Shown: positions 48,366 through 51,967 of the stretch, piece by piece | Layout: the number at the start of each line of letters is the position of its first letter | Numbering within the stretch: the first letter of the stretch is position 1 | Origin: a virus | Taxonomy: Duplodnaviria > Heunggongvirae > Uroviricota > Caudoviricetes | Reading direction: 5' to 3' (one strand) | Virus record (IMG/VR): IMGVR_UViG_3300047472_000248 | Coordinates: 1-52,314 of that record | DNA length: 52,314 nt | Program-made: the position numbers and the translations under genes | Notes under the pieces: model-generated | Told to the model about the DNA's origin: nothing | The model's database searches: none | What the model saw: only the letters and a program-made list of their open reading frames with translations

Positions 48366-49094
48366 ATGGCAAAGCGCAAGCAAGTGGCTCCCCGTGGTAG
48401 AACTTCCCGGCACGAGGTCGACGCCGGCACCGAAGCTCTCCTGACCCCCATGTCCCGCGCACCCGCGCGACAGCCCCTCGAGGCACGCTCTGAGACCCAG
48501 AAGCGCTACATCAGCGCGATCAAGTCCCACGACGTGATCTTCGGGATCGGCCCCGCCGGCGGCGGCAAGACCTACGTGCCGACCGCCCTGGCTGCCGAAG
48601 CCCTCATGGACAAGCGCATCGAGCGCATCGTGATCACCCGCCCCGCGGTGGAGTGCGACGAGCAGTTCGGCTTCATCCCTGGCGAGATCGAGGACAAATA
48701 CGAGCCCTACCTGCAGCCGTTCCGGCAGACCTTCATCGAGCGCATGGGCAAGGGCCCGTTCGAATACGCCCTGAAGGCCGGCCGCATCGCGCCCATGCCG
48801 CTGGCCTTCATGCGCGGCATCACCTTCAACGACTGCTGGGTCCTGCTGGACGAGGCACAGAACCTGACCCACAAGCAGTTCAAGATGTTCCTCACCCGCA
48901 TCGGGGAGAACTGCAAGGTCATCATCTCTGGCGATCCGGACCAGGACGACATCGGTGGTGGGGGCCTCCCTGATGCAGTGCGTCGCACCAGCTCGATCCG
49001 GGGTTTCAAGGTGGTGGAGTTCACGGTGAAAGACGTGGTCCGCTCCGGGATCTGCATGGAGGTCTTGAAGGCCTACGAGACGCCTCGCGGGTGA
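48366..49094 (+). CDS. phoH: PhoH-family ATPase
   Basis: GPAGGGKT, TRPAVE...GFIPG, PLAFMRG.TF, LDEAQN and SGDPDQ.D motifs. Confidence 0.95.
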   Translation: MAKRKQVAPRGRTSRHEVDAGTEALLTPMSRAPARQPLEARSETQKRYISAIKSHDVIFGIGPAGGGKTYVPTALAAEALMDKRIERIVITRPAVECDEQFGFIPGEIEDKYEPYLQPFRQTFIERMGKGPFEYALKAGRIAPMPLAFMRGITFNDCWVLLDEAQNLTHKQFKMFLTRIGENCKVIISGDPDQDDIGGGGLPDAVRRTSSIRGFKVVEFTVKDVVRSGICMEVLKAYETPRG

Positions 49095-49176: not shown

Positions 49177-49851
49177 ATGAGGCACACAACCGAGGAGCTG
49201 GAGACCCTGGCGCTGCAGATCCATCCCGACCACCGGGCCGGCGAAGCAGCGCTCCTTCGAACGCGGTGGTTCGACTACCACCAGATGCACCCCGTAGAGG
49301 CCACCTACCACTACGCGGCCGCATACGTCGAGCAGACCCGGCTGTGGGTCGAGAAGACGATCGACGCCGGCGAGCCCGAGCGCCCCCGGCCGTTCACGCC
49401 AGACGACATCTTCAAGTCTCGCGACCTGACCTCGATGTGGCTCGCGCGCAGGGCTGCTGACGCGCTGGGCATCCCCTACAACTTCGTGATGCAGTTCACG
49501 GCAGACCGCGCCCTGGTGCGCTACTTCTCGCGCTTCCCGCGGCCCAACATGCTCTACGGCGAGGAGTTCGAGGGCGACCTGGCCGATGCGTGGAAGCTCC
49601 GGCTGAGCCAGAGCATGGTGTGGGGCACGCACCCCAACCTGCACGCCTCGAAGTTCGCCTTCCAGGCCGAGCAAGAGCGCCACCTCGGCTTCGTCGTCGA
49701 CCAGGTGCGCACCCGGCCGGCCCCGCAGCACCGTCTGCTGGCTCGCCTGCTGCACGAGGACGTTCTGAACGAGACCCAGGTTGCCATGCACTTCGGCGAC
49801 CGGATGCTGGACGATGCCCGGCGGTATGCAGGCACCCTTGTCGCGGCGTAA
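49177..49851 (+). CDS. Hypothetical protein upstream of the replication genes
   Basis: 224 aa, normal codon use, first gene after the AT-rich island. Confidence 0.75.
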   Translation: MRHTTEELETLALQIHPDHRAGEAALLRTRWFDYHQMHPVEATYHYAAAYVEQTRLWVEKTIDAGEPERPRPFTPDDIFKSRDLTSMWLARRAADALGIPYNFVMQFTADRALVRYFSRFPRPNMLYGEEFEGDLADAWKLRLSQSMVWGTHPNLHASKFAFQAEQERHLGFVVDQVRTRPAPQHRLLARLLHEDVLNETQVAMHFGDRMLDDARRYAGTLVAA

Positions 49852-49859
49852 TGCAGTAA

Positions 49860-49871
49860 GTCAGCCCTGAC
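49860..49871. promoter_or_regulatory. Operator (#18)
   Basis: GTAAGTCAGccCTGACT, directly followed by TATAAT (49872-49877), upstream of the hfq-like gene and dnaB. Confidence 0.85.
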
Positions 49872-49922
49872 TATAATCGACCCGAGGGCAGCGATGCCCA
49901 GTGCCACCTCCCAGGAGCTTTT

Positions 49923-50255
49923 ATGAACCGAGAAACACTCACGCTGCCCGATGCAGCCGTCCGCCAGGACCAGGCCCGATACGCGCAGCGCGCAGACGAA
50001 CGTCCGGCTGAGCGCCCCAAGAAGAAGTTCAAGGCCGTGGGCCACGACATCCAGCTGGAGCAGGCGCAATTCAACAAGTTCCCCACGACGATCTACGTCG
50101 AGGGCGAGGACTTCACCGGGGTCATCACGCGGCGTGACAAGTTCACGATCACGCTGGCCTACGAGACGATCACCGGCAGCCCGGTCGAAGAGATCTTCTA
50201 CAAGCACGCCATCGAGCGCGTGCGCATCGAACGGAACACGCAAGGGGCGAACTGA
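49923..50255 (+). CDS. hfq: Hfq-like Sm/LSm-fold RNA-binding protein
   Basis: TIYVEG...FTGVITRRDKFTITL (Sm1) and IFYKHAI (Sm2; the YKHAI signature of Hfq); AGGAG RBS. Confidence 0.75.
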   Translation: MNRETLTLPDAAVRQDQARYAQRADERPAERPKKKFKAVGHDIQLEQAQFNKFPTTIYVEGEDFTGVITRRDKFTITLAYETITGSPVEEIFYKHAIERVRIERNTQGAN

Positions 50256-51628
50256 TGTCGGCAGTTGCAGCGGTGCCGGCAACCCTGCCGGCGGGCGTAG
50301 CGTTGCCGGAGGAAGAGCCAGTCGCATACGACTTCGACGAGGCCTTCCAGACGAAGATCGCGGCGCTCTTGATGCGCGACACCAAGTTCGCGCAGATGAC
50401 GGACGGACTCGTTCACGAGTCCTACTTCGAGAACACGGCAACCGGCGCCGTCGTCAAGGTGGTCAACCGCTACTTCGAGAAGTGGCGCAAGGCCCCGGGC
50501 GACAAGGTCACCATGAAGAAGGTGATGGGCGATGCGATCCGCGATCGCATGCTCCCGCCCGAGATCGCCAAGATGGCCATCGCGGTCATCCCGGGCCTCT
50601 ACGAGACGGACGTCTCCGACCGCGACTACGTGGCCGACGAGGTCGCGACCTTCGCCCGCCACCAGGCCACCGCGAAGGCCATTCTCGAGGCCGTGGAGCT
50701 GATCGAGAAGCGCGACTTCGCGTCCATCGGCACGCTGGTGCGCAAGGCCCTGGACACGGGCGTGCAGGTCAGCCACGGCGCCTACAACTACGGCGAGATG
50801 GTGGCCGCGCGGACGCTGGAGCGCAAGGAACGCGCCGCCGGCACCCTCGCGCCCACCGGGATCACGAGCGGCTATGCGGCGCTCGACGACTACCTGTATC
50901 ACAAGGGCTGGGGCCGCGGCGAGCTGGGCGTGCTGATGGGCGCCGCGAAGGCAGGCAAGTCCATGTCGCTGCTGACCTTCGGGGTCAACGCGATCGCCGC
51001 CGGCTACCGCACGCTCTACATCACGCTGGAGGTGTCGAGCAAGATCCTCGCGGACCGCCTCGACGCGAACGTCTCCGAGCGGGCCATGTTCGAGCTGGGC
51101 AGCCACCCGCACGAGGTCGAGGAGAAGGTCAGCGCCTTCATGGCGAAGGCAGCGCCCTTCATCATCCACGAGTTCCCGACGGGGACGATGAAGGCGTCGG
51201 ACCTGCGCCGGCTGATCGAGCACTACAAGTCGCAGGGCATGGTGTTCGACCTGGTCCTGGTGGACTATGCCGACCTGATGGCGCCGGAGCGGGTGACCGA
51301 CAACATCCAGGAGAACAGCAAGTCCGTCTACGTCAACCTGCGCGGCCTGGCCATGCAGGAAGGCTTCGCGATGCTGACTGCGACGCAGACGAACCGCGAG
51401 GGTGCCAAGAAGGCCGTCGCGACCATGACCGACGTGGCGGAGGACTTCAACAAGATCCGCATCGCCGACGTCGTCATCTCCATCAACAAGACCGAAGAAG
51501 AGGCCAGGCTCAAACAGGCACGCCTCTACTTCGCCGCGTGCCGCAACCAGCGGTCGGGCTTCACCGTGCGCATCGAGCAGGACATCGATCGGGCGCGCTT
51601 CATCAGCAAGATCCTCGGAGAAGAATGA
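50255..51628 (+). CDS. dnaB: DnaB-family replicative helicase
   Basis: GAAKAGKS Walker A, YITLE, VLVDYADL Walker B, TATQTNR and ACRNQ motifs. Confidence 0.93.
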   Translation: MSAVAAVPATLPAGVALPEEEPVAYDFDEAFQTKIAALLMRDTKFAQMTDGLVHESYFENTATGAVVKVVNRYFEKWRKAPGDKVTMKKVMGDAIRDRMLPPEIAKMAIAVIPGLYETDVSDRDYVADEVATFARHQATAKAILEAVELIEKRDFASIGTLVRKALDTGVQVSHGAYNYGEMVAARTLERKERAAGTLAPTGITSGYAALDDYLYHKGWGRGELGVLMGAAKAGKSMSLLTFGVNAIAAGYRTLYITLEVSSKILADRLDANVSERAMFELGSHPHEVEEKVSAFMAKAAPFIIHEFPTGTMKASDLRRLIEHYKSQGMVFDLVLVDYADLMAPERVTDNIQENSKSVYVNLRGLAMQEGFAMLTATQTNREGAKKAVATMTDVAEDFNKIRIADVVISINKTEEEARLKQARLYFAACRNQRSGFTVRIEQDIDRARFISKILGEE

Positions 51629-51967
51629 ATGTCGCAAAAACCTCACAAGGCGCTGGTGCAGTTCACCCGCGTCTATGGCACCTACGGTGGCGGTGACGAT
51701 CGTCGCGCGCCCGACGTCTTGGAAGGCTACGCGTCGACTCGTGGCGCTGCAGAGGAGGCCGGCAGGGGCCGCGGTTGGTATGGCGGCCCAGGACGGGTCA
51801 CCGAGGAAGAGGCAGTCGTCATCGATGGCAAGGTTTTCGTTCTTCGGTATGCCGACCCCATCGACCTGGACAGCACAAAGAAGGCCGCCGATGCAAAGCT
51901 GCGCGAGGAGACTATCGCGTCGCTCACAGCCGAACAGAAACGTGTTCTCGGACTATTGGAGAAGTGA
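51629..51967 (+). CDS. Hypothetical protein
   Basis: 112 aa, abutting dnaB. Confidence 0.55.
   Translation: MSQKPHKALVQFTRVYGTYGGGDDRRAPDVLEGYASTRGAAEEAGRGRGWYGGPGRVTEEEAVVIDGKVFVLRYADPIDLDSTKKAADAKLREETIASLTAEQKRVLGLLEK

Follow-up and report, generated by a model that had tools for sequence, protein, structure and literature searches.

What use would a phage have for an Hfq-like protein encoded immediately in front of its replicative helicase? The question is raised by a small open reading frame (ORF) in a 116,314-bp IMG/VR virus record (IMGVR_UViG_3300047472_000248) rated complete by CheckV, the first 52 kb of which (52,314 nucleotides) are hereafter called the window. Hfq is among the best-studied bacterial RNA regulators. 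A sequence-only reading of the window had described the ORF as a phage Hfq homologue that retains binding of 3′ U-tails, and had suggested that its product chaperones phage small RNAs (sRNAs) or disturbs host Hfq. Overall, the observation was confirmed, and the interpretation placed on it is partly supported.

Family membership and fold of the Hfq-like protein

The ORF was present exactly as quoted in the sequence-only reading, and both motifs given for it, TIYVEGEDFTGVITRRDKFTITL and IFYKHAI, were found as stated. The gene and its parts are as follows.

49913..49917, plus strand: Shine-Dalgarno sequence AGGAG, 5 nt (CTTTT) before the Hfq-like ATG, from sequence inspection
49923..50255, plus strand: Hfq-like ORF, 110 aa, read from the sequence
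49923..50039, plus strand: codons 1–39, predicted disordered basic N-terminal arm (net charge +4; pLDDT 56–72), ending in the K/R cluster PKKKFKAV
50040..50237, plus strand: codons 40–105, predicted Sm/Hfq core (helix 41–50 and five strands, with GHD, RRDKFTITL, and YKHAI), from Pfam, pLDDT, Foldseek, and hhalign

The GC content by codon position was 0.61/0.41/0.86, in agreement with the neighboring PhoH, phrog_2500, and DnaB genes, whereas the shifted frames gave values unlike those of the neighbors; we therefore regard the called frame as the coding frame. The spacing of the ribosome-binding site, GGAG-TTTTT-ATG, is kept in relatives of the gene.

Homology to Hfq was borne out by several comparisons. 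The protein matched the Pfam Hfq family (PF17209) over residues 42–105 with 30.2 bits (E 3.5e-7; 30.5 bits in a search of the whole genome), the curated gathering cut-off being 27 bits. An exhaustive phmmer search over 1.84 billion representatives (threshold E ≤ 1e-3) retrieved 102 proteins, of which 95 were small (81–151 aa) and had in common the motifs KKFVAKGHDAQL..AQ, G.I.RRDKFTITL, and (I/F)YKHAIE. The family alignment and profile were built from 96 small members; the seven long matches (766–2384 aa) were excluded, and the five of these that were scanned proved to be SH3-repeat cell-wall hydrolases. When compared with the PDB, the 96-member profile matched 36 sequences, the best 35 of which are named Hfq and the weakest Asl2047, with S. 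aureus Hfq as the best match (E 2.9e-11). The hhalign probability to E. coli Hfq was 97%, at a sequence identity to cellular Hfq of only ~30% over the core.

The predicted structure agreed with these matches. An AlphaFold2 model computed on the family alignment placed a helix at residues 41–50 and strands at 54–59, 62–71, 75–81, 87–93, and 99–102, with a core pLDDT of 94–97. All of the best 50 Foldseek matches of the model in the PDB were Hfq (TM by target ≤ 0.84); the top one was PDB 5uk7, Hfq bound to dsDNA. The helix and five strands of an Sm fold, which the sequence-only reading had offered as a check on its claim, are thus predicted here. As judged from the profiles and the model, the 110-aa protein is a genuine but divergent member of the Hfq family (Sm fold) and, by its alignment, falls into a separate phage subfamily that comprises ~100 sequence clusters. 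We infer that it forms an Hfq-type ring, from homology and the conserved β4/β5 interface strands only.

Other searches returned little. The protein matched no family in PHROGs, where E. coli Hfq itself weakly matches one unnamed phrog only, and tblastn against phage and plasmid collections gave no match. A scan with only two peptide patterns, covering one genome for each of 185,579 prokaryote species, yielded no relative.

RNA-binding surfaces and the basic arm

The residue register was taken from the hhalign alignment to E. coli Hfq, and conservation was counted by column over the 96 members. In this register, Y58 corresponds to Y25, E62/D63 to I30/K31, D72-K73-F74 to D40-Q41-F42, and Y93-K94-H95 to Y55-K56-H57. 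The Sm2 motif YKHAI (Y93-K94-H95-A96-I97) and the Sm1 residues G66, D72, and F74 are all present, as they are in bacterial Hfq (E. coli, P. aeruginosa, and S. aureus), with which the phage protein also shares the Sm fold and the proximal pocket. The claim that the proximal U-pocket is retained withstood this comparison, its counterparts being nearly invariant across the family: D72 was found in 95 of the 96 members and H95 in 90, and K94 in all of them, while the column of K73 was always K or R, that of F74 always aromatic, and that of Y93 always Y or F. The Sm1 glycine (G66) was Gly in 94/96. At the position of Gln8 of the proximal uridine pocket, the phage protein has H41, and His occupied this column in 96/96 members. 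Given the conservation of the pocket residues, the protein would be expected to bind U-rich RNA.

The remaining two surfaces of cellular Hfq fared differently. In E. coli Hfq, the rim arginine patch R16, R17, and R19 catalyzes RNA annealing, and a triple rim mutant shows no annealing activity (PMC3753642). This patch aligns with Q49, F50, and K52 of the phage protein; across the family, rim position 16 was Gln in 88/96 members, position 17 was variable, and position 19 was K or R in only 51/96. On the distal face, the sequence-only reading was right that Y25 has a counterpart in this protein (Y58), but the tyrosine is a chance feature specific to this one protein, and the family column reads T/V/R/I. 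The same reading had described the distal loop as altered, which holds and even understates the case: E62/D63, the counterparts of I30/K31, are variable, as are the distal-face residues across the subfamily. Of the three surfaces with which cellular Hfq binds RNA, the subfamily, by these alignments, keeps the proximal one and has lost the distal and the rim ones.

Further differences from bacterial Hfq lie outside these surfaces. An Arg pair, R70-R71, takes the place of S38-F39 (R71 in 92/96 members), in addition to the invariant His for Q8 and the Q/x/K for R16/R17/R19; the stretch between strands 3 and 4 carries an insertion that is variable in the family and 6 residues long in this protein; and the C-terminal tail is short. 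The core is slightly acidic. The N-terminal arm was found in all 96 members, with a median length of 39 aa and a net charge of +1 to +7, and at least three of its last eight residues were K or R in 82/96. In the mechanism that we propose, the basic arm and R70-R71 would supply the charge that the rim gives in cellular Hfq.

These comparisons bear directly on the view that the protein is a general phage RNA chaperone, the hexamer of which binds the 3′ U-tails of phage or host sRNAs and pairs them with mRNAs, as cellular Hfq does. Such a role would fit the conserved proximal pocket, the Hfq fold, and the name "RNA chaperone Hfq" that public pipelines give to homologues. It is weakened by the Gln at rim position 16 in most members, considering that the E. 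coli triple rim mutant lacks annealing (PMC3753642), and by the unconserved distal residues for A-rich RNA, with the positions of Y25, I30, and K31 varying freely. Moreover, Rfam found no known RNA family or sRNA in the window, and the strict coupling to dnaB described below would be left unexplained. We consider the general chaperone unlikely, and general sRNA-mRNA matchmaking is, on the residues just described, probably not what this protein does.

The dnaB operon, its leader, and its wider relatives

The surroundings of the gene in the window comprise the following features.

48366..49094, plus strand: PhoH-like ATPase gene (Pfam PhoH, 230 bits), also upstream in relatives
49177..49851, plus strand: phrog_2500 gene, 224 aa (phrog_2500 E 1.3e-36; synteny)
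49859..49872, no strand: palindrome AGTCAG-CC-CTGACT (AGTCAGCCCTGACT), candidate repressor operator, overlapping the −10 box
49872..49877, plus strand: perfect TATAAT −10 box, 46 nt before the ATG
49886..49899, plus strand: leader hairpin GGGCA-GCGA-TGCCC with a GCGA loop, close to where the transcript is predicted to begin, read from the sequence
50253..50257, plus strand: TGATG, in which the stop codon of the Hfq-like gene and the start codon of dnaB share one base, from sequence inspection
50255..51628, plus strand: DnaB-like replicative helicase gene (Pfam DnaB_C, 53.8 bits; phrog_19 E 2e-70)

The TGATG coupling to dnaB, already pointed out in the sequence-only reading, is real, and relatives are also coupled. 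We compared 13 metagenomic loci, namely seven IMG/VR loci found by family patterns and six contigs for five other members drawn from all over the family, the weakest matches included. In all 13, dnaB directly followed the Hfq-like gene, with −4 to +11 nt between the stop of the one and the start of the other, the overlaps being TGATG, TAATG, or ATGA. Wherever the upstream sequence sufficed, phrog_2500 and PhoH preceded the Hfq-like gene, giving the syntenic order PhoH - phrog_2500 - Hfq-like - DnaB, and primase and ligase genes lay further downstream in the operon of relatives. In the loci with a near-complete dnaB, the helicase was 54–71% identical to that of the window, as against 36–47% for the Hfq-like protein, from which we conclude that the Hfq-like gene drifts fast yet is retained. 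Linkage to dnaB is a defining, conserved trait of the whole subfamily, which the sequence-only reading had missed, and it suggests a tie to the replication module and not to host sRNA networks.

The operon position also distinguishes the gene from bacterial hfq, which is found at the locus miaA-hfq-hflX. Extra Hfq copies occur outside the core locus, such as Hfq3 of B. anthracis pXO1 and Hfq2 of Burkholderia. These copies are not known to be linked to a replicative helicase or to belong to the replication operon of a phage. A constant position in a replication operon would be unexpected if the gene served host takeover, with subunits mixing into host Hfq rings or competing for host RNAs and thereby disabling host sRNA regulation. 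The core strands EIFYKHAIE..V.I do resemble the inter-subunit interface of cellular Hfq, but the identity to cellular Hfq is low, and we give host takeover hardly any credence.

In the region between phrog_2500 and the Hfq-like gene, the sequence-only reading had assigned the gene its own operator and TATAAT. A promoter-like site with a palindrome is indeed there, and is also found in relatives, but the operator is one of many and a −35 hexamer is missing: none was recognizable at the TATAAT at 49872–49877, and a sigma-70 consensus scan did not call the site. The sequence AGTCAG-NN-CTGACT has 31 copies in the 116-kb genome, where well under one is expected by chance; 15 of these lie inside the window, between 4001 and 49872, and the fusion of palindrome and TATAAT exactly as at 49859–49877 occurs at 4 sites in the genome. 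Across the genome, the palindrome sits in intergenic regions and is often extended to TAAGTCAG-NN-CTGACTTA.

Ten related loci shared the same layout, with a palindrome variant, TATAAT (51–60 nt before the start codon), a small GC hairpin, and GGAG-TTTTT-ATG in that order. In 8/10 of these relatives, the hairpin was followed by a U4–7 tract, with the Shine-Dalgarno sequence 10–20 nt further on, so that the hairpin/U site lies just upstream of the ribosome-binding site of the Hfq-like gene itself. Leaders with hairpin and U4–7 were located at L007:4783-4844, L008:4836-4889, L011:4848-4910, L012:1265-1325, L013:4868-4925, and L014:4534-4590. The proximal face of Hfq binds sites of this kind, in which U's follow a hairpin, and the hairpin and U-tract of the relatives resemble either a terminator close to the promoter or a binding site of the Hfq type. 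The leader in the window keeps the hairpin and has no U-tract. Because RNAalifold found no consensus structure among the ten leaders, we treat the leader architecture as a lead only.

The leader raises the possibility that the protein is an autoregulator and nothing else, binding the hairpin and U-rich leader of its own mRNA and thereby setting how the Hfq-like - dnaB operon is translated or terminated. The conserved layout of promoter, small GC hairpin, U-tract (in 8/10 relatives), and Shine-Dalgarno sequence would suit this role, and E. coli Hfq similarly represses translation of its own mRNA. Nevertheless, the window's leader has the hairpin without the U-tract, the hairpins are short (4–6 bp), and RNAalifold found them to share no consensus structure. 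Pure autoregulation strikes us as improbable.

The nearest cultured relatives of the helicase are large siphophages and phage-plasmids, and in these the slot between phrog_2500 and dnaB is filled in several ways. Among the Nickievirus phages, Pseudomonas phage nickie encodes there an 89-aa protein, gp117 (motifs GHQ...FDNYTITI...YFKSSI), which hhalign relates to the family at 95% and for which BLASTP gave no match, so that the link is through profile comparison only. Its homologue in phage Nican01 was deposited as "hfq", although Hfq goes unmentioned in the paper on that phage. In two Cupriavidus metallidurans plasmids (106–107 kb), a 128-aa slot gene is annotated "RNA chaperone Hfq", and its product matches Pfam Hfq with 43.5 bits and the family at 99% in hhalign. 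The slot gene of 154 Acinetobacter plasmids encodes 143 aa (hhalign 93%); most are annotated as hypothetical, and the distant variants listed are annotated Hfq. A Methylobacterium plasmid has an 86-aa slot gene (hhalign 91%). The nickie and Methylobacterium forms lack the His of YKHAI. The slot proteins of nickie, Nican01, Cupriavidus, and Acinetobacter thus share the phrog_2500/dnaB position and hhalign probabilities of 93–99% with the family, and some share the Hfq label, but they are too divergent for a BLAST link to the protein of the window.

Among the ~110-kb Acinetobacter baumannii phage-plasmids, we observed two forms of the slot gene, a 143-aa hypothetical form in ~126 records and a more canonical form in 27, the latter labeled "RNA chaperone Hfq" in the two records listed. 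Homing-endonuclease genes were seen in the same module, namely a GIY-YIG gene in the Methylobacterium plasmid (L022:367-1086) and a LAGLIDADG gene next to PhoH in Stenotrophomonas phage BUCTxx99 (L005:1-1664). BUCTxx99 also has a 69-aa ORF in the slot, which overlaps the dnaB start (L005:3281-3490); similarity of this ORF to the family or to Pfam was undetectable, and it may represent either another, degenerate Sm-like gene or a replacement of unrelated origin.

In SSU5 and in the Rhizobium phages RHEph10 and B1VFA, the slot is empty. Since divergent lineages fill the slot while SSU5, RHEph10, and B1VFA leave it empty, the Sm/Hfq-like gene before dnaB is an old, often kept, and dispensable part of the replication module. 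The phrog_2500 gene lies directly upstream of the Hfq-like gene or, where the latter is absent, of dnaB. All relatives, among them SSU5 and the Rhizobium phages, have kept phrog_2500 ahead of dnaB. Its product matches no Pfam family, and its all-helical AlphaFold2 model (pLDDT 70) found no fold match in the PDB. Neither Pfam nor PHROGs revealed a recognizable helicase loader in the replication module, and GC skew indicated no clear replication origin. We regard the phrog_2500 protein as a candidate for an unrecognized replication initiator or helicase loader. Just after dnaB, a phrog_5370 gene (51629–51967) has a third-position GC content of 0.68, compared with 0.86–0.93 for its neighbors.

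A proposed role in lytic replication

The best explanation, which as a joint reading we hold at even chances, is that the Hfq-like gene heads the lytic replication operon of an SSU5-related phage-plasmid, and that its product is a divergent Hfq ring that binds U-rich RNA on its proximal face and serves this operon without being a general matchmaker. According to this proposal, a promoter overlapped by one of the dispersed palindromic operators would drive the Hfq-like - DnaB operon, and the protein would assemble into an Hfq-type ring with U-rich single-stranded RNA on the proximal face. The ring might then act on RNA as lytic replication begins, be it primer, origin, or leader transcripts; alternatively, it might set how far the dnaB operon is expressed, by way of its own leader with the hairpin.

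We place the function in the replication module on three grounds: the coupling to dnaB stays the same in members that otherwise diverge widely, the surfaces on which sRNA-mRNA matching depends have been lost, and Thermococcus plasmids have independently put Hfq-like genes beside helicase genes. The protein is not indispensable for the helicase, given that SSU5 and RHEph10-type Rhizobium phages use the same module with the slot empty. Several points count against this explanation. Q8 has been replaced by His, the rim patch is absent, and the leader in the window lacks the U-tract of its relatives; in addition, ring assembly by itself might explain why YKHAI is conserved, and operon position alone is insufficient to establish a replication role.

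A more direct part in replication can also be envisaged, with the ring itself or its N-terminal arm attaching to the DnaB hexamer or to ssDNA and helping to load or regulate the helicase. Translational coupling would favor matched synthesis of two ring-forming proteins, the slot is conserved over deep divergence, and the module has no recognizable helicase loader; E. coli Hfq can bind DNA, and the top fold match of the model was PDB 5uk7. A parallel exists in Thermococcus and Methanocaldococcus plasmids, in which a gene for a Zn-finger-Hfq-like protein adjoins a replicative helicase gene and is apparently co-transcribed with it, and for which the authors suspected a role in replication (PMC3543421). 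The archaeal case resembles the phage one in that it involves a mobile element, a helicase neighbor, and an extra N-terminal nucleic-acid-binding part, but the gene there is archaeal and immediately downstream of a different helicase gene, and the N-terminal part is a C2H2 zinc finger instead of a disordered basic arm (PMC3543421). However, the gene is missing from related phages that carry the same helicase, and the strongest constraint falls on the RNA uridine-pocket residues. A direct partnership with DnaB or ssDNA thus seems rather unlikely to us.

By weight, the general chaperone comes first among the alternatives to our preferred explanation, followed by the direct DnaB/ssDNA partner, the pure autoregulator, and last the poison of host Hfq. 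A broader reading would be that an Sm/Hfq ring was recruited as a dedicated accessory of DnaB-type helicases on mobile elements, aiding the start of lytic replication, and independently so in archaeal plasmids; the ring would, for example, present or anneal RNA at the origin, or dock on the helicase via its basic arm. We offer this reading as a speculation with a small chance of being correct.

Returning to the ring that serves the lytic replication operon, we consider the protein and its relatives best described, from their sequences, as a phage replication-operon subfamily of Hfq that has kept the uridine pocket, dropped the distal and rim surfaces, and gained a basic arm. Some homologues already bear an automatic Hfq annotation in public records. 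The conserved helicase linkage and its breadth, Acinetobacter phage-plasmids included, appear undescribed; literature searches for phage-encoded Hfq, including the slot genes of the cultured relatives, found no functional study.

The subfamily is a fixed component of the replication operon across a wide range of large siphophages and phage-plasmids, ~150 Acinetobacter baumannii plasmids among them, and is mostly annotated as hypothetical. With a uridine pocket and without the matchmaker surfaces, it could reveal of what use a minimal Sm ring is to a virus. Whether RNA chaperoning is linked to the onset of DNA replication, at which the archaeal plasmids hint as well, could also be tested with it, and the cultured relatives (phages nickie and Nican01, and the Cupriavidus plasmids) make the question directly testable.
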